A stretch of DNA of 63,504 bases, the filler included. It is 7 parts of 7 records of this genome, joined end to end, with 100 filler letters (N's around TTAATTAATTAA, not from the genome) between each part and the next. Parts side by side here need not be neighbours in the genome. Positions count along the whole stretch, not along the records: positions 1 to 12,962 come from SRR31147125_56400; 6 more parts are not named here. The stretch is one strand, 5' to 3'. Below, piece by piece: positions 1-57,656 of this stretch. A model generated the notes under the pieces. That model was given only the letters and a program-made list of their open reading frames with translations. It was not told the DNA's origin and did no database searches. The stretch's first letter is position 1, and each line of letters starts with the position of its first letter. The translations under genes and the position numbers were made by a program.

Positions 1-310
1 GAAAACTCGAAAACCTGTTAAACAGGGATAAAGGGGATGCAAGGGATCAAGTCAAAACAGTTTTTTTATGTTTAAGCTTTTGACCCAAAATCCGCCTTTA
101 TCTGTGTTTATCTGTGAAAAAAACCTGCCTCACGCCCGTTCACTTCGTTTCCTCAAGCCGCAAAGGCACTAAGAAAGATCCTCTTTGTGATGTTCGATGT
201 TACGAGTTCGCCTTTCGATGTAAAAATCATTCTCTTTGCGTTCTTTGCGTCTTCGCGTGAGGCAAAGGTTTGGGTTTTACATCCGCTTTTATCTGTGTCC
301 ATCTGCGGCC
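1..310. repeat. Composite intergenic repeat: 9-nt arm (22-48), 10-nt arms (91-118, 282-310), inverted pair 122-179 / 234-270
   Basis: acagggata-aaggggatg-caagggatc; tccgccttta-tctgtgttta-tctgtg; gcctcacgc...gcgtgaggc inverted; 1-40 resembles 6171-6210. Confidence 0.85.
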
Positions 311-1857
311 ATTATCAGCTCTTCACACCGCTTTCGATCAATCTTTCCACTGGCGCTTTTCGGAAGGCCCTCTACAAACACAACATCTTGAGGAACCTTA
401 TAACCTGGTAACTTCTGCGCACAAAAGGCTAAGACATCTTTTGTTTCAACTGGCGAAGAGGAAACCACAACAGCAATCAACCTGTTTTCAAGTAACGGAT
501 CAGGAATGCCAATCACGGCCACTTCGACGGCAAAACCCGAATCCAGAATGACGTCTTCGATTTCCTGCACGTTAATGCGGTGGCCACTGACTTTTAGTTG
601 GTTGTCCTTGCGACCGACAACGAAGAAATAGCCCTCATGGTCACGGTAGGCCAGATCCCCGGTATGATAGCCGTGCACACTTAGCGCTTTATCTGTTGCG
701 CGTTGATCACGCCAATACCCCTGCATGATATTTTCTCCGGAGGCGACGAGCTCTCCCACCTCCCCCTCAGGCATTTCCAGCCCATCAGCACCGATAACTT
801 TTAGAGTCACACCGGGAATCGCCTGGCCGATGGATTCTATCTTGTCCCTCAAGATCAAAGGCTCAACATAGGCCAACCGTGCTGAGGCTTCTGTCGCACC
901 GTACATGACGAACAGCTCCGTCTGTTCCGGCAGGACTTCCATCAACCGCAACTTGTTCGAAGATGCCATGTGTCCACCTGCTTGAGTGCAGTAACGCAGC
1001 GATGTCAATTCTGTACGAGACGCTTCCAGCGGAGATTGATGTAGTAAATGTGCATAAGTCGACGGCACACCGGAAAAGCCTGTCACCTTTTCGTCGATCA
1101 TCTGCTGAATAACAGTCGCGGGATAAGCAAACCTATTGTTGATCACGAGACGTCCACCAACAGCAATATGCGTGTTAAGCAGAGATTTCCCCATAACATA
1201 GAAAAACGGCTGAACAACCATCTGAATATCAGCATCCGTCAGTTTCAAATACTGGCAGATCGAGTTAACGTTGGTCACGATATTCCGATGGGAGAGCATC
1301 GCCCCCTTCGGTTTGCCTGTTGAGCCGGAGGTATAGATGATACTGCCGAGTTGGTCGGCATCTATACTGAGGTTCACATTCACATGACTGGTCTGCTGAT
1401 TAATCCACGCCCAGTCAAGGATGCTAACATTCTTCTTCAAATCAAGTTTCGGGTCTTTGACGATGACCGTCTGAATGCCAGACTTTTCAAGATCCACCTG
1501 CCGCAGCAGACGCTCATATTTCCGTTGGGTCAGAAGAACCGGACTCTCCAACTCTTCGAGAAGTTGCAAAATATCATCCGGCTTCAACTCGGTGTTGAGC
1601 GGCACGGCGACGGCTCCGGCTTTGAGCGCTCCGTAGTAGGCAACGACATACTCTAGGCTGTTTTCCAACAGCAGAACCACACGATCACCAAGAATGACTC
1701 CCTGCTCAATCAACCAGAACGCCAATTGGTTTGCCTGGGTATTGATGTCACGATACGTTGCACGAACGTCCTCGTGGACCAGAGCGACCTTGTCAGGGGA
1801 ACGCTCGGCGCTGTTCTCGAGAAAATGATGTATGAGTGTTGGTTGACCTGAAATCAT
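289..1857 (-). CDS. Acyl-CoA/acyl-ACP ligase (AMP-forming, ANL superfamily), exosortase-A EPS-locus type
   Basis: IIYTSGSTGKPKG P-loop, YGATE, TGD and LPKSASGKIDR motifs; next to an ACP. Confidence 0.9.
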   Translation of the reverse strand: MISGQPTLIHHFLENSAERSPDKVALVHEDVRATYRDINTQANQLAFWLIEQGVILGDRVVLLLENSLEYVVAYYGALKAGAVAVPLNTELKPDDILQLLEELESPVLLTQRKYERLLRQVDLEKSGIQTVIVKDPKLDLKKNVSILDWAWINQQTSHVNVNLSIDADQLGSIIYTSGSTGKPKGAMLSHRNIVTNVNSICQYLKLTDADIQMVVQPFFYVMGKSLLNTHIAVGGRLVINNRFAYPATVIQQMIDEKVTGFSGVPSTYAHLLHQSPLEASRTELTSLRYCTQAGGHMASSNKLRLMEVLPEQTELFVMYGATEASARLAYVEPLILRDKIESIGQAIPGVTLKVIGADGLEMPEGEVGELVASGENIMQGYWRDQRATDKALSVHGYHTGDLAYRDHEGYFFVVGRKDNQLKVSGHRINVQEIEDVILDSGFAVEVAVIGIPDPLLENRLIAVVVSSSPVETKDVLAFCAQKLPGYKVPQDVVFVEGLPKSASGKIDRKRCEELIMAADGHR

Positions 1858-1864
1858 AAAATCC

Positions 1865-2471
1865 GTTTCTCACAGAGACACAGGGACACAGAGTTAATCC
1901 AGAAAACCATTTATGCTGCGCGTGATACCATCAACCATCAACGCTTCGTTAAAATTGAGCAGATATCCAAGTTTGAAATTCATAAGAGCCAAATAGGTTA
2001 AAAGCTGTTTTTTGTGAGCGTTAGTTACCACTTCTACCGATTTCAATTCTATCAACACCTTGTTTTCAACGACTATATCAGCTCTAAAAGACTCATGGAA
2101 CTCAATGCCTTTATAGTGAAGAGGGATTGATACTTGCCGCTCAACACCCAGCCCAACAGTCTCCAGTTCATGAGAAAGCAATGTCTCATAAACACTTTCA
2201 AGCAGGCCTGGACCTATTTCTTTATGTAGCCTGATTGAACAGTCGACAATAACTGTACCAATCTCATTTTCAGTCATACCCCCTCCACCCCAAAAAACTG
2301 AGTCAACTCTCTCACGGTGTCACAAAGACACAGAGAAAACCTTGAAATTCAGAAGCCAGCCCAACTCCATTGTCACAGCCCTAAATAAATCAAAAGTTAA
2401 TTCCAAGCACATTAAGACCGCATATGAGTCTTTTTTGTTTTGCTCAGTGGCTCTGTATCTCCGTGAGAAAC
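1865..2471. mobile_element. Putative inverted-repeat-bounded element carrying the GxxExxY gene
   Basis: Arm 1865-1893 gtttctcacagagacacagggacacagag matches the reverse complement of 2443-2471 at 24/29 positions; a second left-type arm lies at 2308-2339; mobility is inferred. Confidence 0.6.
1894..2277 (-). CDS. GxxExxY protein (PD-(D/E)xK nuclease-like family)
   Basis: 127 aa; GPGLLESVY motif, FRADIVVE, IELKS, QLLTYL, GYLLNF. Confidence 0.95.
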   Translation of the reverse strand: MTENEIGTVIVDCSIRLHKEIGPGLLESVYETLLSHELETVGLGVERQVSIPLHYKGIEFHESFRADIVVENKVLIELKSVEVVTNAHKKQLLTYLALMNFKLGYLLNFNEALMVDGITRSINGFLD

Positions 2472-2489
2472 AAAGCCTTTGATTTATTC

Positions 2490-2747
2490 TTAAACAGCCA
2501 CCTGTCCGGTTTTACGCCCGATAAATGCGGTCACATTATCAACCGAATCAAGGTTTTCCGGTACCAGCTCATCATCTTCAACGGTGATCTCAAATTCCTG
2601 GCTGATAAACTCTATCAGCTCCAGGATACCGGTTGAATCAACAATCCCTTCATCAAGAAAGGAGGTGTTATTCTCCAGCCCTTCGTCATCGCCGAAAAGG
2701 TAATTATCGATGATAAATGTTCTGATTTTGTTTTGTACGTCTGACAT
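2490..2747 (-). CDS. Acyl carrier protein
   Basis: 85 aa, acidic; GIVDSTG phosphopantetheine-site motif; ENLDSV. Confidence 0.92.
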   Translation of the reverse strand: MSDVQNKIRTFIIDNYLFGDDEGLENNTSFLDEGIVDSTGILELIEFISQEFEITVEDDELVPENLDSVDNVTAFIGRKTGQVAV

Positions 2748-2787
2748 AGTTTTAATCTCCTGAATGAATTTCTTAAATCAAAAACGA

Positions 2788-2965
2788 TCTCTCACTGAAC
2801 CACAGGGGCCACGGAGAAAGCTTTATTGAAGGCTACACCTCAAAACAGATCGCTATTTTATCACTCCCATCAAAGAGCCTAAGATCCTTACGTTCGCCAG
2901 ATTTTACCGATACCACGTTTATGAATCTTGCCTTAACTTTGTGTCTCAGTGTCTCTGTGAGAAAC
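2788..2965. repeat. Gene-less inverted-arm element, 8-nt-period family
   Basis: tctctcactgaaccacaggggccacggagaaa (2788-2819) ... ctttgtgtctcagtgtctctgtgagaaac (2937-2965). Confidence 0.85.
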
Positions 2966-2975
2966 TCAGGATTTC

Positions 2976-3965
2976 TTATTTTATCTCCGGGACATCCCCA
3001 ACCAGCTGCGCGGACAGATGCAAATATCGAGTTGTGCTCCGCTTGGTGTCAATATCATCGTAAACCCGTTGCACCTGTTGCGGGGTTAGTTCAAGCACTT
3101 CAGCCACCTCTTCTGTCGTGTAGGCGTTATTCTTACCGTATAGGCAAAGATCCATCCGGTCATGCGGGAGGGAGAAGTAAAACTCATCCTGCCCTTGAGG
3201 CAAAGAATAGGTGTCTGTTGTCGGCGGACGGTTGCAAATTTCAGCTGGCACACCCAGATATTCAGCCAATTGATAGACTTGCGTCTTGTACAGATGAGCG
3301 ATCGGTTTAACATCGGCCGAGCCATCACCGAGTTTGACGAAGAACCCCTGATCGTACTCAAGGCGGTTGGGCGTCCCGGCAACAGCGTAATTCAGGCGGT
3401 CAGCGTGGTAATATTCAAGCATCTTGCGCGTTCTCTGTTTAAAGTTCGTTGCAGCCAGGATTTCAAGGTAGGCCTTAAGCGGCAGACGAACTTTTTGAAT
3501 TTCGCCATCAGGAGATTGAGCCACCACGGAAAACAGTGAAAACTCGTCACTATCAATAACATTGGGGATAACAATTTTTGATTTCCAGCCATCACCGTAC
3601 TCAGGGATGACGCTTTGCACAGCTTCATCATATCGACGATAGAAGCCGACCGCTTCGAGAATTCCCGATATATTTTCATGGACCGAATCAATCCCGAAAC
3701 AGTCTGAAACGCTGGTACTCAGTGATAAGGTTTCATCAGAAGAGTGTCGTTCCGGCATGTGCAGTCCAAACACTTTGCCGGGGCCAAAGGCTTTGACGCA
3801 AAGGCCACAGGTGACACTGCTGTCAATGCCCCCTGATAAACCCAGGACAATGCCCCTTCTCTTCACCTCTGTTCGCATGAGCGTGCGCAGGTTTTTACTG
3901 ATTTTCTCGACTTCTTGTTCTGCATCCAGAGTGAGGATGTCTTTTGAAAAAGCGGGTTTTGTCAT
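2976..3965 (-). CDS. nadE: NH3-dependent NAD+ synthetase-like protein (EPS-locus paralog)
   Basis: GLSGGIDSS PP-loop, NFKQRTR, GTPNRLE, GFFVKLGDG, PIAHLYKTQV; start MTKPAF follows a GGAG RBS. Confidence 0.85.
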   Translation of the reverse strand: MTKPAFSKDILTLDAEQEVEKISKNLRTLMRTEVKRRGIVLGLSGGIDSSVTCGLCVKAFGPGKVFGLHMPERHSSDETLSLSTSVSDCFGIDSVHENISGILEAVGFYRRYDEAVQSVIPEYGDGWKSKIVIPNVIDSDEFSLFSVVAQSPDGEIQKVRLPLKAYLEILAATNFKQRTRKMLEYYHADRLNYAVAGTPNRLEYDQGFFVKLGDGSADVKPIAHLYKTQVYQLAEYLGVPAEICNRPPTTDTYSLPQGQDEFYFSLPHDRMDLCLYGKNNAYTTEEVAEVLELTPQQVQRVYDDIDTKRSTTRYLHLSAQLVGDVPEIK

Positions 3966-4007
3966 TTCAATCTCCATATAAAAAATAGCAACCACAAAAA
4001 CTCAGAA

Positions 4008-4118
4008 ATCAAGGACTATTGGGATACATTGAATTTGATTTAAAACAAAACTTAAAGACTTAAAGATTTTGGTCTATAAACATTTCGTTTTATCCATTTC
4101 ATCCCCTGTATCCCTGAT
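4008..4118. repeat. Degenerate inverted-arm element, 9-nt-period (GGGAT/ATCCC) family
   Basis: atcaaggac-tattgggat-acattgaat ... atccatttc-atcccctgt-atccctgat. Confidence 0.7.
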
Positions 4119-4128
4119 TATTTAGCTG

Positions 4129-6115
4129 TCATAATTTTCTCACTAATCTATCCGGTACAACGGCTTCAATCTTATTCGGATCAAACTCATCAACATACTG
4201 CTGATGTAATAGCTGCGTCGACAAAATCCCCATCAAAGCCATATTCTGGACCTCATTCGCCGCAAACTTAGAACCTTTCCTGAATTTTTTAGCCAACAAA
4301 CCAACTTTTTTTGCATCAAAATAGCCAGCCTGCTTGATCGCTGATTCAGATAAACAGTCACCGACATAAGATCCATCGTCATCCGTCCAGAAGGACTCTC
4401 TTATCGGCGCACGATAAGGCTGCTTGGGACGGTTTCTGATCGAATCGGGAACCGCCCCCTTAAAAGCTTCCTTTAGAATATACTTTTCGTTGAGACCCTT
4501 GATTTTCCAATGTGGCGGTATTTTAGCCGCAAAATCGATCACGCGATAATCAAGGAACGGCAGACGCAGTTCAATCGAATTACCCATTCCGACTCGGTCT
4601 CCCTGGGATGACAAGAGGTAATTCGAAAGAAAGACGTCCATCTCCAAAAACTGAGCCTGTGCGAAGGGAGTTCTTTTCGCGAAGTCATCAGGCAATCTAC
4701 GCTCCATATCCTGATAAGGATCATATCCTGCGAGGTCAGCCTGTAGGTCTTTTTTGAAAAAACGTCGAATTTTTACCGGTATTCTTCCAGCGAACCTGAT
4801 GTGAAAAGAAAGGATCTGACAGATCGCCTTCGCTGACTGCAAAAAATTGTTTCAAAAACAATTTTGCCTTGCCTGCATCCTTGAAGATATAGGGATAAAG
4901 CCGCTCTACCAACAGCGGCTGCCAGGCTGACTCTGGCTGACGAGCCCAAAATCGCCTAAGCTTTGCTTCTTTATAGATGTTATAACCACCAAAAATCTCA
5001 TCAGCACCTTCACCGGTGAGAACAACTTTGAAATCGCTGGCACGCACAAGTTTAGATAGAGAATAGAGTGGGACTGGACCCGTCCGCAACAGAGGTTTTT
5101 CACAATGCCAGACAACCTTCGGTAAATGTTCTCGAATATGGGCATTGGTCACAGAAATTTCACTATGCCTGGTTCCCAGTGCCGCAACCATTTCCTTCTG
5201 GTACTCAGATTCATCAAAAGGGTTTTCCTGAAAACCGAGCGAAAATGTCCTGAGATCATTGTTGAAATGGTTCGCCACAAGGGACGTTGTGACTGACGAA
5301 TCAAGTCCACCACTTAAGTAGGCCCCCACTGGGACATCTGCTCGCAATCGCAATCTAACAGCATCTTTCAACAAGGCATGCAGCTCTTCTTTCGCTTCAT
5401 CCAAGGAGCCGGACCAATACTGACCTTTGTCGTAGGCCGGGATGGACCAGAATGGCTGCGGGCTCGGCGTGGTAATCGTTTGATTGAGAAGGAGATAATG
5501 TCCTGGAGGAACTTCCAAAATATTCTTAAAAGGTGTCTTGGGAGTGACCGTCGTCCAGAAAGTAAAGGTTTGCTTAAGGGCCTCTGAGTCGAGTGAACGA
5601 TCGATAGATCTATCAGCGAAAAGTGCTTTGACTTCTGACGCGAAACTGAACTGACCATGTTGCTGTGTGTAATACAGAGGACGGATACCAACCCGGTCAC
5701 GTGCCAGAAACAGTTCCCTCTTGTGTCGATCCCAAATCGCAATAGCAAACTGGCCATTAAGCATGGACAGACATTCTGGACCATATTCCTGATACATGGC
5801 CAGAACAACTTCAGTATCAGTTCCAGTGGTAAAACGATAGCCTTTTTTCTCTAGGTCAGTTTGAAGCTCGAGGTAATTGAAAACTTCACCGTTGTAGACA
5901 ATCCAAAGGTTCTCATCTGTCGAGCCAATGGGCTGAGAACCACACTCAAGGCCAAGTATGCTGAGGCGCGCGTGCCCCAGACAAACGTCTGCATCACAGT
6001 ATAAGCCTGACTCATCCGGCCCCCGGTGATGTAACATTGTCACCATCTTGGCGACTGTTGCCTCAGTGCCTTGATCGATTTTATTCAAATAAAATGTTCC
6101 AGCAATACCACACAT
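4129..6115 (-). CDS. asnB: Asparagine synthase (glutamine-hydrolysing)-family amidotransferase; frameshift near 4750
   Basis: MCGIAG N-terminus, HRGPDE, LSGGLDSS, LTGEGADE; C-terminal ELRLPFLD and RPKQPY continue in a shifted frame after a T6-C-A6 run. Confidence 0.9.
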
Positions 6116-6143
6116 TTAAAACAACCTTTTTAACCAAAAATGA

Positions 6144-6500
6144 TCTCTCACAGAGCCACAGAGGCCCGGAGAAAACCTGAAAAACTGTTGAACAGGAATA
6201 TAGGGGATCTTTTAAAAAGTTTATATTTACCTTATAACCAAAGCAACAAACCTGCTATCAGCCTTATCTCACGCCCGTTCGCTACGCTCACTTAAGACAC
6301 GAAGGCCCTGAGAAAGTCTTTTCGTTGATTCCAACCTAAAAGCCTCTAACTCTTTGATAGCGACTCAAAAATACTGATTTATAAAATCGAACTTTGACTC
6401 ATGGTTCTAAGCCTTATCCCCTAAATCCCCTCTATCCCTGTAAAAAAGATTTTGTTTTTCTTTTTGCCTTTGTCACGTTTCTGGCTGTGTTCCTGTGGCT
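6144..6500. repeat. Nested intergenic repeats: 8-nt arm 6144-6175, 9-nt arms 6191-6209 / 6416-6444, CCCGTTCGCT-box arm 6267-6316, arm 6478-6500
   Basis: tctctcacagagccacagaggcccggagaaaa; aacaggaatataggggatc; atcccctaa-atcccctct-atccctgta; cccgttcgctacgctcacttaagacacgaagg. Confidence 0.85.
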
Positions 6501-7398
6501 ATAAACCAAGCCCCTGTCTCATCGGCTGAAATTCAAAATCATCCAACAACCGCTCAAATCGACGCTTTGTTTTCCCAAGATTTAAATAGTGCCTGAATCG
6601 ACTTTTTGCGCTGGCACCTTCCATACGTGGTTGCTGGGGGTCAAACTCCCACGGATGAAGATAGAACACAAAAGGTTGTTGCTCTTTCTGATTGATAGTA
6701 TTCAGTCCCCAACGAGTCACAGCATATGGCAACAGACGAAAATAGCCCCCACCAGCAATCGGTAGATTTCTCTGCCCGATTTTCAATGTCGTAATCGGTA
6801 GTTCACGAATTGCATGCTGCTCCTCAGACTTGGCACTCTGCGCCTGCCATTCGTCATCATTTTTTACAGCATAACCGTCAAAGCGCGGCCAATCTGGAAT
6901 ACCGTAAAAATCGTGCTTCATCGGAAAGATACTCGAGTCATAGAGAAAACCGGCATCGACGAGTTCATCAAACGCCCAGGCCGTCTCTCTGGTAATCGAA
7001 TAACTCGGCGCGCGATAACCGATAACGGCCTCTCCTATCTGATCTTCGAGGAGCGCTTTCCCCCGCCTGATATCGTTACGGTAGGTCTCTCGATCCTGCA
7101 ATGCCACGCGCTGATGAAGATAACCATGACTGGCAATTTCATGACCTGAAGAATGAATCTTTTTAGCAATCTGAGGATAGCGATCAGCCACCCAACCGAG
7201 AATAAAAAAGGTCGCTTTGACACCCTTCTCATCCATCATCGCCAAGATTCCATCGGTGTTGTTTTCCACACGACATTCGCGGCTTCCCCAGGTACTCGGA
7301 GGCGACTGGTTTTCAAAGGCCGACACATGAAAATAATCTTCAACGTCGATTGTCATGTAATTGGTGATTTTATTCAAAATTGAACCTTTATTGTCCAC
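6499..7398 (-). CDS. XrtA-system polysaccharide deacetylase (with DUF3473 C-terminus); start uncertain
   Basis: TIDVEDYFH, ATFFILGWVA, HEIASHGY, GYRAPSYS, AGGGYFRL, FYLHPWEFDP. Confidence 0.92.
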   Translation of the reverse strand: MDNKGSILNKITNYMTIDVEDYFHVSAFENQSPPSTWGSRECRVENNTDGILAMMDEKGVKATFFILGWVADRYPQIAKKIHSSGHEIASHGYLHQRVALQDRETYRNDIRRGKALLEDQIGEAVIGYRAPSYSITRETAWAFDELVDAGFLYDSSIFPMKHDFYGIPDWPRFDGYAVKNDDEWQAQSAKSEEQHAIRELPITTLKIGQRNLPIAGGGYFRLLPYAVTRWGLNTINQKEQQPFVFYLHPWEFDPQQPRMEGASAKSRFRHYLNLGKTKRRFERLLDDFEFQPMRQGLGL

Positions 7399-7797
7399 GG
7401 AGCCACACGGAAAAGCACAGAAAAAAGCCTACATAAAACCTAAAAGAATTCTTACCACCCGTTCGCTTTGCTCACTCAAGACACGAAGACACCAGAAGAA
7501 TCATTTTGAGGGTTATAACCTTAAAGCCCGTTACGAACTTCCTCTGTATTCTCCTTAATCTCTCTATTAAGTTGCTTTTATCTGTAAAATCAAAATCTGC
7601 CTCACGCTCGTTCGCTGCACTCTCTCAAGACGCTAAGCACGCTAAAAAAACCTTTAAAACACGACAAGACATACAACCTTTATTATGGTTTCACTCCAAA
7701 AAGGTTGCCTTGGGTTAGACCTTTTTAGCGCCTTTGCGTGCTCTGCGTGAGGATGCTTTTGACCTTTATCCACTTTTATCAGATTTCAATCCTGACA
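7395..7797. repeat. Nested intergenic repeats: 10-nt arm 7395-7426, CCCGTTCGCT-box arms 7453-7500 and 7597-7650, partner arm 7722-7753
   Basis: ccacggagccacacggaaaagcacagaaaa; cccgttcgctttgctcactcaagacacgaag; cctcacgc...gcgtgagg inverted. Confidence 0.85.
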
Positions 7798-7802
7798 AAG
7801 CT

Positions 7803-8819
7803 TTAACTTTTATACCCCTGCGGGTTTTTGCTTTGCCAATTCCAGCTGTCACGCAACATCGCGTCCAGACCGAATTCAGCCTGCCATTGAAGCTCCTGCT
7901 TTGCCAGAGTTGGGTCGGCCCAGCACTCAGCAATGTCGCCGGGACGTCGTTCCACAATGCGATACGGCACGGATTTACCAGACGCTGTCTCAAACGCTTT
8001 AACGATATCGAGGACTGAATAACCGTTCCCGGTCCCGAGATTATAGGTCAGCACTCCTCTATCAATGAGCAGTCGATCCAGAGCTTTCAAATGCCCTTTA
8101 GCCAGGTCAACCACGTGGATATAGTCACGAACACCGGTACCATCCGGTGTTGGATAATCATTCCCAAAAACGGATAACTCTTTCAACTTCCCCACAGCCA
8201 CCTGACTGACATAAGGAACAAGATTGTTCGGGATTCCCTGAGGGTCTTCACCGATACTGCCTGACACATGCGCACCGGCTGGGTTAAAATAGCGCAGAAG
8301 TACAATGCCCCAATCTGGTGCAGAGAAGGAAAGATCGCGAAGCAATTCTTCTATCATTAGCTTACTGCGCCCGTATGGGTTAGTCGCCGATGTCGGAAAA
8401 TCCTCACGGATCGGAACGCTGGCCGGATCCCCATAAACAGTTGCTGAAGAGCTGAAAACCAGGTTAAAAACTCCAGCGTTTTTCATCGCCCGCAAAAGGA
8501 CGAGAGTGCCGTTTACGTTGTTATCGTAATAATCAAGGGGGATCTGTGTCGACTCACCAACAGCCTTGAGTCCGGCAAAGTGGATTACTGCATCGATGGA
8601 ATGGTCTGAAAAAATCTTGTCGAGGGAACTTTCATCACGAATATCTGCCTGATAAAAACAGAGAGGTTTCCCGGTGATTGTCTCAATTCGTTCCAGTGCA
8701 ATCCGGCTTGAGTTACTGAGATTATCAACGACGATGACATTGTAATCAGACTCCAGCAATTCAACGACGGTATGCGAGCCGATGTATCCTGCACCACCTG
8801 TCACCAGTATAGTTTTCAT
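7803..8819 (-). CDS. galE: UDP-glucose 4-epimerase
   Basis: [49 protein letters not shown]. Confidence 0.97.
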
Positions 8820-8847
8820 AAACACTCTTCCTGTAATATAACAATCG

Positions 8848-8986
8848 GCCTCGCACCCGTTCGTTCCACTCACTCAAGCACACAAAGCCACGAAGAAAAC
8901 ATTATTTCTTGTATTTAAAACCCTAATCTCCTGCTTTTGACCTGCTCTGTGTTCTCCGTGTACTCCGTGCGATGCAGGTTTTGACT
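8848..8986. repeat. Inverted-arm element with CCCGTTCG box
   Basis: gcctcgcacccgttcgttccactcactcaagcacacaaagccacgaag ... ctctgtgttctccgtgtactccgtgcgatgcaggttttgact. Confidence 0.85.
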
Positions 8987-8995
8987 ATTACGTAA

Positions 8996-10312
8996 CTATA
9001 AAGACCAGTAACGCAACCCAGCAGTCTCAACTTCCTCGCGCTTCATCACACTCTTAACATCAACAATGACACCACTGTTCAGACCGTTACTACACAGTTC
9101 TGCAAACGTGTCGATCGTCAAATGTGAGAATTCTTTATGTGAGACAGCATGGATGATCGCGTCAACAGTCCCAACATGATCAAACTCCGTCAGCTGCAAT
9201 CCGTACTCATGCATCGTTTCATCGGCATCTGCCAGAGGATCGTGAATCAAAACCTCAACACCGTAATCTTCCAACTCAGAGACGATGTCGACCACTTTTG
9301 TGTTACGGATATCGGGAACATCCTCTTTAAAGGTTAACCCCAGAATAAGAACACGTGATTTTTTGATGACTTTTCCAGACCTGATCATTTGCTTGACGGT
9401 GTTTTCGGCAACATATTTCCCCATACCGTCATTGATGCGACGTCCGGCGAGAATAACCTGGGGAAGGTAACCGATCTGTTCCGCTTTATGGGTCAGATAA
9501 TAGGGATCAACGCCGATACAGTGTCCCCCAACCAGACCTGGGGTAAATTTGAGGAAATTCCATTTGGTTCCGGCAGCAGCGAGGACATCCTGAGTCGGGA
9601 TATCAAGCTTGTTGAAAATCAGAGCGAGTTCGTTAATCAGGGCAATATTGAGATCTCTCTGCGTGTTTTCTATAACCTTGGCCGCTTCAGCAACTTTGAT
9701 ACTGGACGCCCGGTGAACGCCAGCCGTGACAACCAGCTCATAGACCGCTGAGACCGTCTCGAGAGTTTCAGCGTCCATGCCCGAAACGACTTTGACAATT
9801 TTGTCGACAGTATGAACCTTATCTCCCGGATTAATTCTCTCAGGAGAGTATCCTACTTTGAAATCAACACCGCATGTCAGACCTGACTCGCGCTCAAGAA
9901 TTGGAACACAAATATCTTCTGTCACCCCAGGATAAACAGTCGACTCATAAACGACAATACTCCCCTTTTTCAGGTTCTGGCCGATTGTGACGGACGCTTT
10001 CTCCATCGGTGTCAGGTCCGGATTATTGTTTTCATCAATCGGCGTTGGCACCGTGACAATCAAAAAGTCCGTTTCTTTCAAAGAGGATGGGTCTGTAGAA
10101 TAATTAATTTGCGTCGTTTTGAGCTCTTCGGATGTCAGTTCTCCCGTCGCATCAAATCCATTTTTCAACTCATCTATTTTCGCCGCATGAATATCAAATC
10201 CAACAACGTTAACTTGACGACCAAATGCCGCCGCTAGCGGTAAACCAACATAACCTAAACCGACAACACCAATGGTTGCTTGCATATTTATGATCTGATC
10301 AACTGTTACCAA
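8996..10312 (-). CDS. UDP-N-acetyl-hexosamine 6-dehydrogenase (TviB/WbpO-like)
   Basis: GLGYVGLP, ESTVYPG, SPERINPG, KVIENTQRD, GGHCIGVDP. Confidence 0.93.
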   Translation of the reverse strand: MVTVDQIINMQATIGVVGLGYVGLPLAAAFGRQVNVVGFDIHAAKIDELKNGFDATGELTSEELKTTQINYSTDPSSLKETDFLIVTVPTPIDENNNPDLTPMEKASVTIGQNLKKGSIVVYESTVYPGVTEDICVPILERESGLTCGVDFKVGYSPERINPGDKVHTVDKIVKVVSGMDAETLETVSAVYELVVTAGVHRASSIKVAEAAKVIENTQRDLNIALINELALIFNKLDIPTQDVLAAAGTKWNFLKFTPGLVGGHCIGVDPYYLTHKAEQIGYLPQVILAGRRINDGMGKYVAENTVKQMIRSGKVIKKSRVLILGLTFKEDVPDIRNTKVVDIVSELEDYGVEVLIHDPLADADETMHEYGLQLTEFDHVGTVDAIIHAVSHKEFSHLTIDTFAELCSNGLNSGVIVDVKSVMKREEVETAGLRYWSL

Positions 10313-10386
10313 AAGACTCTCCTATCAAAAGCTTTAAATTTTATTAATTTTAATTCAGCAAAGACAATTTACAAGTTTTTTAATAA

Positions 10387-11480
10387 TTATTTTTCAACAA
10401 GAACGGCTTGACGTAAGCGATCAATCTGAGCTGAAATTTTTTTCAATTGGTCCTCAAAACGGCCAAATTCATTTTGTTGCTGATTAATCAAATATTCAAG
10501 AATACTACCCTGACTTGACAAGCGTTCTAGAATCGCTTCTTTTTCAGAGCGGCTGGCGTTAAGTTTGGCGTAATTTTCCTCAATTCGAGCTAAGCGATCA
10601 TCGAGAGTCGGAGTACTTGAAATGCGTGGTGGAACCGTACCATGCGATTGGACAGGTGCGTCCTGAATGCGGGGGTCATCAAAAGACAATTCGTTCACGG
10701 CATCTTTGACGAGTTCGATATCAATTTCTTTCGATTCTTCAACAAATGCAGACAGCAACAGAAAATCGCAGATCAGATTGATCAGTCGAGGGATACCGCC
10801 ACTGAACTTATAGATCATGTCAAAAACACCTTCGAGAAAGGTGACACAATCACGGTTACCAACAGTTCCCAAGCGATGAAAAATATATTCTTCGAGCTCT
10901 TCACGATTCAAGGGATTTAAATGGCAACTGATATTGATGCGTTGTCTCAATTGTCTCAGAGACGGTTGAGCAATCATCTGTTTCAACTCAGGCTGGCCAA
11001 CAAGAATAATCTGCACAAGTTTAAAGTTATCCGCTTCCAGATTGGACAGAAGACGAATTTCCTCTAATGCTTCGGTCGAAAGATTTTGCGCCTCATCGAT
11101 AATGATGATCGGCTGCCGACCCGCCCCGTTCTCTGACAGCAAAAAATCATTCAGGTCAGTCAGCAGTTGGACTTTGTCTTTCCCTTCCGTCGTTAAACCG
11201 AAATCCTCATTAATCATGGCAACAAGTTGATGACCATCAACTCGCGTATTAAAGACCATCGCCAATGTCGTGTCTGAACTGATCTTGTTGATGATGTCCC
11301 GCAATAGAGTAGTTTTCCCCGAACCAACCTCACCGGTTAATAGCGTAAAACCGGCATGTTCCTGAACACCATACTGAAGGTAACTTAAGGCCTTCCTGTG
11401 CCCTTTACTCAAATAAAGAAACTGAGGGTTCGGCAATAAATCAAATGGCTTAGCGCTAAGCCCAAAAAGTCTGTGTACAT
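10387..11480 (-). CDS. XrtA/PEP-CTERM system-associated ExeA-type ATPase; frameshift just after the start
   Basis: GEVGSGKT Walker A, IIIDEAQ Walker B, LRQLRQRI; ATG at 11480 gives MYTDFFGLSAKPF if one T is restored. Confidence 0.88.
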
Positions 11481-11482
11481 TT

Positions 11483-12718
11483 TTAGAACCTGAGAGACGC
11501 ACCAAGCGTCACGATGTTATTGGTGTAATCATTCCCACTGACATCTGACTCATTGATTCGGTAGCGATAACCAAGAGAGGCAGTCAAACGACGATACACA
11601 TATGCAAAGGACACACCTGTGGTTACACGATCCACATCTTCGTTTCCAACGGCATCATCGTATTCAGCATGTTCAAACTCAGCATCGACAGCCAGCGTGA
11701 GATTGCCCGCTAAAGGTTTACTGAAGTCACAACGGATACCAACACCTTCATCCTCACGATCTTCGCGTACGTAATCAGAGTTGTTCCAGAAAAGCCCAAC
11801 CGATGCAACTGTCGACTCTTTCTGATAATTCAGCCCAAACAGCAATTCACGTGTTTTTGTTAAACCATCCTCGACGGACAAAGTGAAATCCTGACTGTAC
11901 AGTGCTGTTGCGTTCAAAGCCTCGCTGAGGCGATAACCGACTTCTGCCAGCCAGTTAGTGTTATCTGTTTCTTCCCCTGAATCATATTCGACATCAGAGT
12001 ATCCCCCTTCAAGGCTCAAACGTGTGCGTGCACCGAGGCGGGTGTTCAAGCCCAGGGTATAATCGATACGATCAAACTCGTCATCATCATCAGAGACCAA
12101 CGTTGAATACTCAGCACGCGCGAAAACATCACTGTTCTCAGAAAGCGTTTTAACCAGAGAAACACGCCCACGATGCTCTTCCGAGTCATTGCCAGCCGGT
12201 TCGGCGTAGTCAAACCGATCGTAATCATATCCAAAAACCAGTGCCAGGGTTGATGTCACTCGGAGGTCATACTCAGGCGTCACGACAAGATGGTATGCGG
12301 TGGTTCGGTCCGTGTCAGAAAACTCATTATCGTCGCGCGTATCAAGAGCCTCTCGTGAAATTGTCTCAGATACACGTAATGTAAAGGGGCGACCAGAAAA
12401 AAAGAGGACTGACGCGTCTGCCTGCTGCACGTCTTCAAACTCATCCAGATTGTCTTCATCATTCTCTTTATAGAAACGATAGCGCAATGAGTAGTCAGCA
12501 ACAGCTTCGACGGAACGACTGTCGTATGTCACTGAGATTCCAGGCTGAACGGTTGTAATCCAATCCTCTTCTTCATCGTTTTCAGACAGATTGATGTTGT
12601 CGTTATATTCTTCTTCCACGCTTAGATAAGGGTGGATTTCAAAGGCTGACCAGGCTGACAAAGGACACAAGAAAACTGCCAGAAAACCACTGAGAACTAT
12701 AAACTTAAATCGCATCAT
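11483..12718 (-). CDS. PEP-CTERM/EPS-associated outer-membrane beta-barrel protein
   Basis: Signal peptide, EEEYNDNI motif, alternating beta-strand pattern, C-terminal Phe (LGASLRF); lies between kinase and ATPase. Confidence 0.8.
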   Translation of the reverse strand: MMRFKFIVLSGFLAVFLCPLSAWSAFEIHPYLSVEEEYNDNINLSENDEEEDWITTVQPGISVTYDSRSVEAVADYSLRYRFYKENDEDNLDEFEDVQQADASVLFFSGRPFTLRVSETISREALDTRDDNEFSDTDRTTAYHLVVTPEYDLRVTSTLALVFGYDYDRFDYAEPAGNDSEEHRGRVSLVKTLSENSDVFARAEYSTLVSDDDDEFDRIDYTLGLNTRLGARTRLSLEGGYSDVEYDSGEETDNTNWLAEVGYRLSEALNATALYSQDFTLSVEDGLTKTRELLFGLNYQKESTVASVGLFWNNSDYVREDREDEGVGIRCDFSKPLAGNLTLAVDAEFEHAEYDDAVGNEDVDRVTTGVSFAYVYRRLTASLGYRYRINESDVSGNDYTNNIVTLGASLRF

Positions 12719-12765
12719 AATATCACCCAACTTGTTATCGTTAACCATTATAGAAAAAGCGATCA

Positions 12766-12962
12766 TTAATAATAGTAATCTTCCTTCTGGTTCATAAACA
12801 TCGTGGCATCGTTATAAACAACACCCAACAGGTTATGCTCCTTAAACTCTTCCAGAGTTTTTATGAGATCATCTTTTTTCGCGCGCCCTTCTCTAACGAC
12901 AAAAAGGCATGCATCAACGATTGTTGATAAAACAATGGCATCTGCAAAAGGTAGAGCTGGGG
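12766..12962 (-). CDS. Polysaccharide tyrosine autokinase (BY-kinase), C-terminal fragment
   Basis: Manual translation PALPFADAIVLSTIVDACLFVVREG...LLGVVYN...EDYYY-stop; terminal Tyr cluster. Confidence 0.8.
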
Positions 12963-13062
12963 NNNNNNNNNNNNNNNNNNNNNNNNNNNNNNNNNNNNNN
13001 NNNNNNTTAATTAATTAANNNNNNNNNNNNNNNNNNNNNNNNNNNNNNNNNNNNNNNNNNNN
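12963..13062. other. Artificial contig linker (N44-TTAATTAATTAA-N44); identical linkers at 28538-28637, 35712-35811, 44503-44602, 51425-51524, 57557-57656
   Basis: N runs around a 12-mer giving stops in all six frames; genes are truncated at the edges, and base composition and gene content change abruptly. Confidence 0.98.
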
Positions 13063-28537: not shown

Positions 28538-28653
28538 NNNNNNNNNNNNNNNNNNNNNNNNNNNNNNNNNNNNNNNNNNNNTTAATTAATTAANNNNNNN
28601 NNNNNNNNNNNNNNNNNNNNNNNNNNNNNNNNNNNNNGGCTATAGTGGGTGAC

Positions 28654-35711: not shown

Positions 35712-35811
35712 NNNNNNNNNNNNNNNNNNNNNNNNNNNNNNNNNNNNNNNNNNNNTTAATTAATTAANNNNNNNNNNNNNNNNNNNNNNNNNNNNNNNNN
35801 NNNNNNNNNNN

Positions 35812-44502: not shown

Positions 44503-44602
44503 NNNNNNNNNNNNNNNNNNNNNNNNNNNNNNNNNNNNNNNNNNNNTTAATTAATTAANNNNNNNNNNNNNNNNNNNNNNNNNNNNNNNNNNNNNNNNNN
44601 NN

Positions 44603-51424: not shown

Positions 51425-51524
51425 NNNNNNNNNNNNNNNNNNNNNNNNNNNNNNNNNNNNNNNNNNNNTTAATTAATTAANNNNNNNNNNNNNNNNNNNN
51501 NNNNNNNNNNNNNNNNNNNNNNNN

Positions 51525-55530: not shown

Positions 55531-55609
55531 CTTTTCTGCCTATGAAGATCACGGACTGAAACCTGATCCGTGTTTGTCCGTGTTTGTCCGTGTTTGTCCG
55601 TAGGGAAAG
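55531..55609. repeat. 10-nt tandem array (tccgtgtttg x3.5) with degenerate inverted partner
   Basis: Array 55567-55601; upstream cctatgaagatcacggactgaaacctga. Confidence 0.8.
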
Positions 55610-57556: not shown

Positions 57557-57656
57557 NNNNNNNNNNNNNNNNNNNNNNNNNNNNNNNNNNNNNNNNNNNN
57601 TTAATTAATTAANNNNNNNNNNNNNNNNNNNNNNNNNNNNNNNNNNNNNNNNNNNN

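Follow-up and report, generated by a model that had tools for sequence, protein, structure and literature searches.

Inverted triple-unit arms in the spacers of an exopolysaccharide operon: probable gene-less members of a GxxExxY nuclease cassette family

The first block (positions 1-12962) of the 63.5-kb stretch of DNA analysed here, called the window in the following, carries an exopolysaccharide (EPS) locus of the XrtA/PEP-CTERM type, and the spacers between its genes contain short inverted arms made of three tandem units. These elements are real and non-random; they come and go at the junctions of operons and are concentrated in EPS loci. They are probably the gene-less members of a small palindromic cassette family, the full form of which would consist of an arm of about three 7-nt units set 8-10 nt apart, a GxxExxY nuclease gene of about 125 codons and a complementary arm. 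The only full cassette of the window is 1866-2339, and its gene (1894-2277) is the only one in the region still in place; the other elements look like emptied or never-filled copies. The closest public relatives are metagenome-assembled genomes of Desulfuromusa and Geopsychrobacteraceae (deacetylase identity 62-83 %), and all statements about whole genomes refer to related genomes, not to the window's own organism.

A preliminary description of the first 8995 nt, made from the sequence alone, had reported arms of three degenerate tandem units in the spacers of this operon, and they are indeed present. A family-blind periodicity scan (three units, period 8 or 9, self-match at least 72 %, dinucleotide shuffles as control) found 8 segments in 1,935 nt of spacer (21-47, 1870-1893, 2936-2959, 4046-4069, 4088-4114, 6148-6171, 6412-6438 and 8943-8969) compared with 1 in 10,831 nt of coding sequence; the shuffles gave 0-0.05 segments per spacer and about 0.2 in total. 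A strict pattern (three CRCNRAR units separated by 1-3 nt), which detects one arm superfamily only, matched five times in the window, always within 1-8995, and not once in the remaining 50.5 kb; its reversed form, used as control, had no match. The arms are thus well above controls which are themselves near zero. Narrower first patterns (with fixed spacing, CACRRAG only) yielded too few matches for use, and the 11-mer of the C module described below was genome-wide not more frequent than its reversed control.

Four arm families occur in the window: CACAGAG, GGGAT, CGCAAAG with a conserved 3' module, and TTATCTGTG. Several traits assigned to them earlier had to be modified. Periods of 8 and 9 nt were recovered, but arm 8943-8969 has period 9, and the 10-nt period exists only as two units (95-114, 286-305). 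Inverted partners are found in most spacers, for example 2310-2339/2439-2468 (77 % complementary) and 1865-1897/2933-2965 (91 %), but the pairing within spacers is weak and degenerate: a crude inverted-repeat score exceeded shuffles (p<=0.04) in 3 of the 8 spacers scored, including the element-free spacer 10313-10386. The loops are not all unique, as 6274-6344 and 7458-7528 are 73 % alike, and the elements are mostly gene-less, the exception being the GxxExxY gene at 1894-2277, on either side of which arms of the same A-type (1866-1893 and 2308-2339) are found. The spacer 10313-10386 agrees with the claim that elements are missing upstream of 10312; however, the EPS contig comprises just 1-12962, and the claim therefore rests on a single 74-nt spacer. 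In relatives this spacer, between the AAA22 and UDP-glucose dehydrogenase (UGDH) genes, does contain elements. The elements of the window, all in an operon whose sense strand is the minus strand, are the following.

19..50, 3' arm on the sense (minus) strand: B-type arm, GGGAT three times with period 9, first element of the contig (repeat searches; periodicity 21-47)
88..116: D-type arm of two 10-nt units (ATCCGCCTTTATCTGTGTTTATCTG), pairing with the B arm 19-50 in the sense-strand fold
126..177: C-type arm with conserved module (sense strand: ...GAGGAAACGAAGTGAACGGGCGTGAGG; direct-repeat search)
231..271: C-type partner arm (minus strand: CGCGAAG ACGCAAAG AACGCAAAG; strict pattern 234-257)
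281..305: D-type arm again, with 88 % identity to 90-114
1866..1893, sense 3' arm: A-type arm (CACAGAG ACACAGGG ACACAGAG), immediately past the GxxExxY stop codon
1894..2277, minus strand: GxxExxY / PDDEXK_3 gene, 127 aa (TIGR04256, 1e-38; D67, E77 and K79 intact)
2308..2339: A-type arm of a gene-less element upstream of the GxxExxY gene (inverted-repeat search)
2340..2438, minus strand: loop weakly resembling the LGxLxNF motif at the C-terminus of GxxExxY proteins (E 0.016), no more than a hint of decayed cargo; in the comparison at DNA level only arms matched
2439..2468: A-type partner arm, 77 % complementary
2788..2820: A-type arm (CACTGAA CCACAGGGG CCACGGAG; direct-repeat search)
2933..2965: A-type arm, 91 % complementary to 1865-1897 (periodicity; strict pattern)
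4010..4030: degenerate B-type arm with a single GGGAT unit
4089..4120: B-type arm, ATCC three times with period 9 (inverted and direct repeats; periodicity)
6144..6177: A-type arm, outer arm of a mosaic spacer (direct repeats; periodicity)
6189..6212: degenerate B-type arm
6266..6316: C-type arm with conserved module; the motif AGCCTTATC recurs at 6258 and 6409
6412..6440: B-type arm, ATCCCC three times (inverted and direct repeats; periodicity)
6476..6498: degenerate A-type arm abutting the deacetylase stop codon
7395..7425: A/E-type arm (CACGGAG CCACACGGAA AAGCACAGAA; strict pattern)
7450..7500: C-type arm with module
7599..7649: C-type arm with module
7722..7752: C-type partner arm, pairing in the fold (inverted repeats; strict pattern)
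8848..8907: C-module arm followed by A-like units (CACACAAAG CCACGAAG)
8940..8970: A-type arm with period 9 (CTCTGTGTT CTCCGTGTA CTCCGTG), pairing with 8880-8900 in the fold

The first element at 19..50 means that the contig begins inside a repeat, and because the D-type arm recurs at 281..305 the first C element is flanked by a direct repeat.

The association of arms with GxxExxY genes was followed in 29 loci from 61 genomes of the order, selected by the PF13366 profile alone. Up to 250 nt from a GxxExxY gene there are 41 strict arms in 14.25 kb (2.88/kb), and farther away 25 in 66.7 kb (0.38/kb), with a reversed control of 1 in each case. The density over whole related genomes is 0.001-0.013/kb; the strict pattern matched 19, 49 and 5 times in the genomes G001, G003 and G002, respectively, and the reversed controls 0, 0 and 1 times. 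The flanks of the gene pair with each other. When the 220 nt upstream were set against the 220 nt downstream and compared with shuffles (p<=0.05), 37 of 44 GxxExxY genes from the order sample, the family relatives and the window itself were positive, as against 10 of 128 control frames shifted by 900 nt. In a sample of the phylum, where 24 of 81 genomes contain the gene, pairing was found at all 28 usable loci. The arms of this sample have nearly always three units, and their types (among them CACAGAG, CAGGAT/GGGAT, CGCAAAG and CACAGAT/TTATCTGTG) include all four of the preliminary description. Along a tree of 43 GxxExxY proteins the arm type changes 14 times compared with a mean of 24.9 after shuffling, and none of 200 shuffles was as low. 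Gene and arms thus have a common descent; as related proteins share labels, the clustering shows co-inheritance and is no proof of recognition of the arms by the protein.

A second gene family shares this layout. Genes of PF05635, Avd-like and named '23S rRNA intervening sequence protein' (PMC10053308), are located between tandem-unit inverted arms at 22 of 23 loci in the order, yet with other units. In the loci L075-L098 and L073 these arms comprise 3-8 tandem units of many kinds (GGGGCGAG, GTGACTG, GAGATGT, GAATTCAGAA, CGTTAAA and others), and PF05635 genes are often only a few kb away from GxxExxY genes, for example at 91-98 kb in G030 and 2.025-2.035 Mb in G040. At L008:15125-16710 a GxxExxY gene has tandem arrays on both sides with 4-5 copies of a ~125-nt unit. 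This unit holds TTATC.../GATAA... inverted arms, so whole hairpin elements were amplified head to tail.

The GxxExxY protein itself looks like an active nuclease, judged by its residues: the PD-(D/E)XK triad D67, E77 and K79 and the GxxExxY motif are invariant in 43 sequences. The structural model (pLDDT 96) has a Cas4/Hjc-like fold, and a fold search gave weak likeness to Cas4, Hjc-type Holliday-junction resolvases and restriction-enzyme-like folds (best E 1.8e-3). By sequence no relative was found in the PDB. In a survey of the PD-(D/E)XK superfamily the function of GxxExxY is listed as 'Unknown' (PMC3424549).

Intermediates between gene-bearing and gene-less forms exist at the junction of the UGDH and deacetylase genes. 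Six relatives have an intact GxxExxY gene between CACNGAA arms at this site; in L006 the gene is frameshifted with the arms flanking it, and in L012 the 27 N-terminal and 19 C-terminal codons are fused with the arms kept (hmmsearch E 1e-4). Gene-less forms are thus derived, at least sometimes, from gene-bearing ones. The earlier suggestion of loops as decayed cargo agrees with this frameshift and this internal deletion in relatives, whereas the window offers one weakly matching loop (E 0.016); evidence for guide-like loops was not found.

At fixed gene junctions elements appear, disappear or give way to others, frequently straight after a stop codon, and small accessory genes (GxxExxY, epimerase) come and go at arm-bearing junctions. 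The spacer between the NAD synthase and acyl carrier protein (ACP) genes is A-type in the window, C-type in L001 and L010 and B-type in L008. In relatives a given junction can hold another element or be empty, and the elements thus turn over. A contig of a close relative in run X1, whose genes are 90-96 % identical to those of the window, has 222 nt of spacer 2748-2975 swapped for 133 others and 7490-7811 swapped for 95; the spacers 3996-4128 and 6116-6498 are kept. Among the hisD|hisB spacers of 29 family genomes 8 have a length of just 13-43 nt and 6 (150-234 nt) contain tandem-unit arms, 5 of the CACAGAG kind and in L117 mainly of another unit type. Some of these arm-bearing spacers have other elements nested in them, and the first arm often starts one base past the stop codon. 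A different GC-rich palindrome family (GTAGGGGCG...CGCCCCTAC) is present in hisD|hisB of L106, L108, L110, L119, L122 and L129.

The proposal of a targeted colonisation of a surface-polysaccharide operon is supported as an enrichment in relatives but not in an exclusive sense. The extended PEP-CTERM locus reaches from the orthologous locus to the PEP-CTERM-type histidine kinase / sigma-54 regulator, GT2, ManC and phosphomannomutase (PMM) genes and makes up about 1 % of each genome. It contains 8 of the 19 strict arms of G001 (~42 kb), 12 of the 49 of G003 (~48 kb) and 4 of the 5 of G002 (~40 kb). Both GxxExxY genes of G001 are located in the extended locus, and both of G004 on the contig which holds the EPS locus. 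In the order sample 12 of 29 cassettes lie beside a sugar-nucleotide, export or EPS-operon gene, a number which rises to 15 with two kinase/regulator junctions and one ABC-2 permease. However, the same arms are also present in hisD|hisB and next to genes for transporters, an ion channel and ABC-F proteins. In numerous genomes of the order the junction of ManC and phosphomannomutase is a recurrent site of GxxExxY cassettes or arms (L035, L037, L044, L048, L053, L061 and L063). A second hot region with 15 strict arms (L017, G003:C2:938000-957999) looks like a defence-island setting, not a polysaccharide one; its arms are found among small unknown open reading frames (ORFs), a methyltransferase, a phosphorothioate-type restriction endonuclease and a Fic protein. 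GxxExxY genes are described in NCBIfam as occurring in intervening sequences (IVSs) and EPS loci.

The build of the arms was compared in 39 pairs in which both arms fit the strict pattern. The variable purine positions inside the units agree in 90 % within an element and 53 % between elements, and the free fourth position in 49 % and 31 %, respectively. For the 1-3 nt between the units the values are 34 % and 35 %, which is pairing at chance level. An arm is therefore three copies of a unit common to both arms and no continuous helix, a build which may point to unit-by-unit recognition. Mismatches on the transcribed strand are G.U rather than A.C (104 vs 51 overall, 20 vs 8 in the unit cores), with a G.U excess in 40 pairs and the opposite in 7, and the C-type module (CTTGAGTGAGC...GCGAACGGGCG) has the sense orientation in 19 of 19 cases. 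Both observations favour pairing of one strand, either as RNA or as single-stranded DNA. The C module of ~26 nt (sense: CTTGAGTGAGC-NNN-GCGAACGGGCGTGAG) interrupts the 3' arm of C-type elements, has no Rfam match and shows much stronger conservation within the order than the arms do. It is located at 6266-6296, 7450-7480, 7599-7629 and 8848-8878 and also in L001-L010.

A selfish cassette with strand-specific pairing is the explanation ranked first, above a mere RNA stem or a protein-binding array. Cassettes of this kind would spread or persist at operon junctions. Each side may act through three units defined by their sequence, to which the nuclease of the cassette possibly binds, and the two arms would pair on the transcribed strand to an interrupted stem of about 25 bp similar to the stems of 23S rRNA IVSs. 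This stem might be a cleavage site or lend stability to the cistrons next to it. A more far-reaching version is conceivable and attractive but rather doubtful. According to it the window shows empty shells of a phylum-wide 'gene-in-a-hairpin' class, free-living relatives of the 23S IVSs, in which a small enzyme (GxxExxY or the Avd-like PF05635) would act on its own arms, whose tandem recognition units co-evolve with it and which may take the form of a DNA cruciform, a single-stranded hairpin or an RNA stem; it would thereby spread or maintain the cassette and mobilise gene-less copies in trans; polysaccharide operons would be the main reservoir, and the stems would cut the operon transcript into separately stable pieces.

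Several observations weigh against the derivation from selfish, self-pairing cassettes. The enrichment in EPS loci was measured in relatives with one strict pattern, and the annotation of the extended locus of G001 covers it except for 3145615-3164000. In some cases a gene-less arm family lacks any copy with a gene in its genome, as do the CGCGAAG arms of G001, a genome with only two GxxExxY genes. In a six-frame profile search the loops of the window were without a GxxExxY remnant, with the exception of 2340-2438 (E 0.016), and comparison of the loops to GxxExxY genes at the DNA level matched arms only. Inheritance of the UGDH|deacetylase cassette appears to have been vertical over a long period, and many copies may therefore be ancient relics rather than mobile elements. 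No target-site duplication and no consistent duplication at the element ends was found. The direct repeats flanking C elements (90-114/281-305; AGCCTTATC at 6258 and 6409) are arm sequences themselves, and empty and filled hisD|hisB sites are too diverged for alignment. To our knowledge, neither transposition nor homing has been ascribed to GxxExxY proteins. With regard to pairing, the chance-level agreement between the units fits a continuous RNA helix poorly, for 3 of the 7 element-bearing spacers of the window the fold is not superior to that of shuffles, and the G.U excess, which a transcription-linked mutation bias could also have caused, is missing from PF05635 cassettes (30 vs 35).

The best surviving alternative, though improbable in our view, treats the arms as host regulatory RNA stems between cistrons, which set mRNA stability or processing and are kept for the dosage of EPS genes whatever their origin. 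The G.U excess on the sense strand, the uniform orientation of the module (19/19), the position of the elements between co-directional genes and the persistence of arms after decay of the cassette gene all speak for it. The sense-strand folding z-scores of the seven element-bearing spacers are -2.7, -2.4, -0.2, -3.8, -2.9, 0.0 and -1.1 compared with +0.6 for the element-free spacer 10313-10386; four spacers thus fold clearly better than shuffles (z -2.4 to -3.8), but three do not. A tuned regulator is also not expected to vary as these elements do, whose families differ or vanish at the same junction in close relatives, and the nucleotides between the units are non-complementary. Rfam had no match at gathering score across the window and none at E<=1 in 1-9100, and neither terminator-like sites (10 vs 12.3 in shuffles) nor promoter-like sigma-70 sites (19 vs 18.1) are in excess. 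The long RNA stems proposed earlier have moderate and mixed support: the G.U bias (104 vs 51) speaks for them, whereas the inter-unit spacers, three of the seven folds and the sister family PF05635, which lacks the bias, do not. Three further candidates were dropped from the sequence alone: CsrA-type GGA decoy sites, the motifs of which would be base-paired, integron attC sites, because an integrase-type layout is missing and the gene is inside the hairpin and not beside it, and promoters inside the C module, whose -10-like part is not conserved.

Elements of a related build have been noticed before. In Geobacter metallireducens, paired tandem-repeat sites (Gmet_I1xx-I4xx) were annotated as 'putative global regulator / IHF-HU binding sites' (Aklujkar et al. 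2009; PMC2700814). As described there, they resemble the elements of the window in having 3-5 tandem 7-9-nt repeats on opposite strands, ~120-160 bp apart, in intergenic regions and in many copies. Class 2 comprises 21 pairs, in which each site has TCTCCGTS[Y] three times in tandem and the two sites face each other from opposite strands over a variable distance, and according to supplementary Figure S4 this unit is the complement of the CACGGAG/CACAGAG units of the window (PMC2700814). Three repeats of ~8-9 nt with the core CTCCGTG (CACGGAG) are found at 8943-8969 and also at 1871-1893 and 2937-2959, and opposite-strand intergenic pairs at 2310-2339/2439-2468, 2788-2820/2933-2965 and 8880-8900/8940-8970. 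The A-type elements of the window share the class 2 architecture. The copies of G. metallireducens are given as near-identical within the genome, whereas those of the window are degenerate and of several families and the relatives have 5-49 degenerate copies. The pair Gmet_I219A/B, 438 bp apart, corresponds in spacing alone to the size of a gene-bearing cassette (PMC2700814). Neither a GxxExxY nor a polysaccharide-locus link is drawn in the passages and supplementary figure of the Geobacter paper considered here (PMC2700814). In the literature covered, from which subscription journals are excepted, no connection of GxxExxY or PF05635 genes with tandem-unit arms or with polysaccharide loci was found, and a decay series of such cassettes was not found either.

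The arms could be DNA-binding arrays for a nucleoid protein or global regulator (IHF/HU-like) as proposed for G. metallireducens, but this appears quite unlikely to us. The identical architecture of the class 2 sites (PMC2700814), the conserved units with free spacers and a spacing near one helical turn are in line with it. On the other hand, units vary widely in one genome (CACGGAA, CACAGAG, CGCGAAG, GGGAT, TTATC...), so that one host protein cannot read all of them, and the arm type tracks the cassette's own protein. In the original paper the binding of IHF or HU is a hypothesis offered without data (PMC2700814).

It had also been suggested that the arms could act as recombination points for shuffling of EPS genes; such shuffling between strains we consider very improbable. 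It is true that accessory genes (GxxExxY, epimerase) are present or absent at arm-bearing junctions and that arms of different spacers can match each other better than their partners within the spacer (91 % for 1865-1897/2933-2965). However, throughout 15 loci (13 with a second matched gene and 2 with the query gene only) those core genes which are present (of barrel, ATPase, UGDH, deacetylase, AsnB, NAD synthase, ACP, ligase) keep one order; just small accessory genes vary, and none of the core genes was seen to be inverted or transposed. Chance low-complexity sequence or an assembly artefact, which the contig start inside an element and the joining of 271 to 6265 in a chimeric contig might suggest, is practically out of the question, being already refuted by the near-zero shuffled and reversed controls and contradicted by the same families in long-read chromosomes.

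For the preferred reading, gene-less copies of nuclease cassettes, the closest functional analogue would be the 23S IVS of Coxiella burnetii, which is reported to have ~430 nt, a terminal stem of ~28 bp and a small, often decaying PF05635 ORF, to be regarded as selfish and to be cut by RNase III (PMC4990558). In both cases a small ORF is enclosed by terminal inverted repeats, and PF05635 genes likewise lie between tandem-unit arms in 22 of 23 loci. A terminal-repeat stem of at least 20 bp around a small ORF was found for GxxExxY (37/44 and 28/28) and for PF05635 (22/23). In contrast to 23S IVSs, the elements described here are located in mRNA operon spacers and the ORF is a PD-(D/E)XK nuclease. 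Membership in the 23S IVSs proper was rejected, as blastn of the 23S region against 163 loci gave 0 matches. Ten full-length 23S copies (G001, G003, G022 and G027) are uninterrupted over model positions 1-2925, nine with 2950-2957 nt and one with 2,410 nt; three more rRNA loci matched in pieces only, and G049 had no match.

Imperfect palindromes and mosaics in operon spacers just past stop codons are also known from REP/BIME elements with their RAYT proteins. REP/BIME elements are thought to affect mRNA stability. The arms described here differ from them in their length of 25-30 nt, the tandem units, the loops of 50-200 nt and the PD-(D/E)XK nuclease gene. A RAYT link was rejected: none of six Y1_Tnp (PF01797) loci had strict arms, and one contained an unrelated 9-nt repeat. 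Terminal inverted repeats around a short non-coding core, the small size, the origin of L012 by internal deletion of a gene-bearing form and the presence or absence at orthologous sites resemble miniature inverted-repeat transposable elements (MITEs). Unlike in MITEs, a target-site duplication was not found and the gene of the full form is no known transposase.

The window is composed of seven contig blocks joined via N...TTAATTAATTAA...N linkers (12963-13062, 28538-28637, 35712-35811, 44503-44602, 51425-51524 and 57557-57656). The GC content of the blocks ranges from 0.37 to 0.57, and the bin may therefore mix organisms. The EPS locus is confined to the first block, in which every gene is on the minus strand. 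It encodes an outer-membrane barrel (TIGR03016), the XrtA-associated ATPase (TIGR03015), UDP-glucose dehydrogenase, an epimerase, the XrtA-system deacetylase (TIGR03006), an amidotransferase, an NAD-synthase-like gene, the acyl carrier protein, the 127-aa GxxExxY protein (TIGR04256, PF13366) and an acyl-CoA ligase. The XrtA-type amidotransferase (asparagine synthase, 4129-6115) is split into the overlapping frames 4129-4842 and 4736-6115. It is a single frame in relatives, and the close relative in run X1 is one base shorter at 4750; the split near this position is either a frameshift or an assembly error. In a spacer of another contig with 56 % GC a perfect 10-nt repeat occurs three times at 55572-55601 (GTTTGTCCGT), which resembles the GTCTGTG/GTCCGTG arm type beside GxxExxY genes in L149 and L160.

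In practical terms such repeats interrupt the assembly of EPS loci from short reads. The start of the present contig within an element and the fusion of 271 to 6265 in a short chimeric contig show that the repeats disturb the assembly. The paired tandem-repeat sites of Geobacter have been annotated since 2009 and are unexplained, and GxxExxY and 23S-IVS proteins are common 'hypothetical' genes scattered in polysaccharide loci. A hairpin-cassette family which colonises operon junctions, especially in surface-polysaccharide loci, would tie these three together, and the 23S IVSs may then be a special landing site. If the stems are processed, the expression of EPS, O-antigen or capsule operons would be affected, and if the nuclease acts on the arms, the cassettes would represent a new kind of small mobile element.

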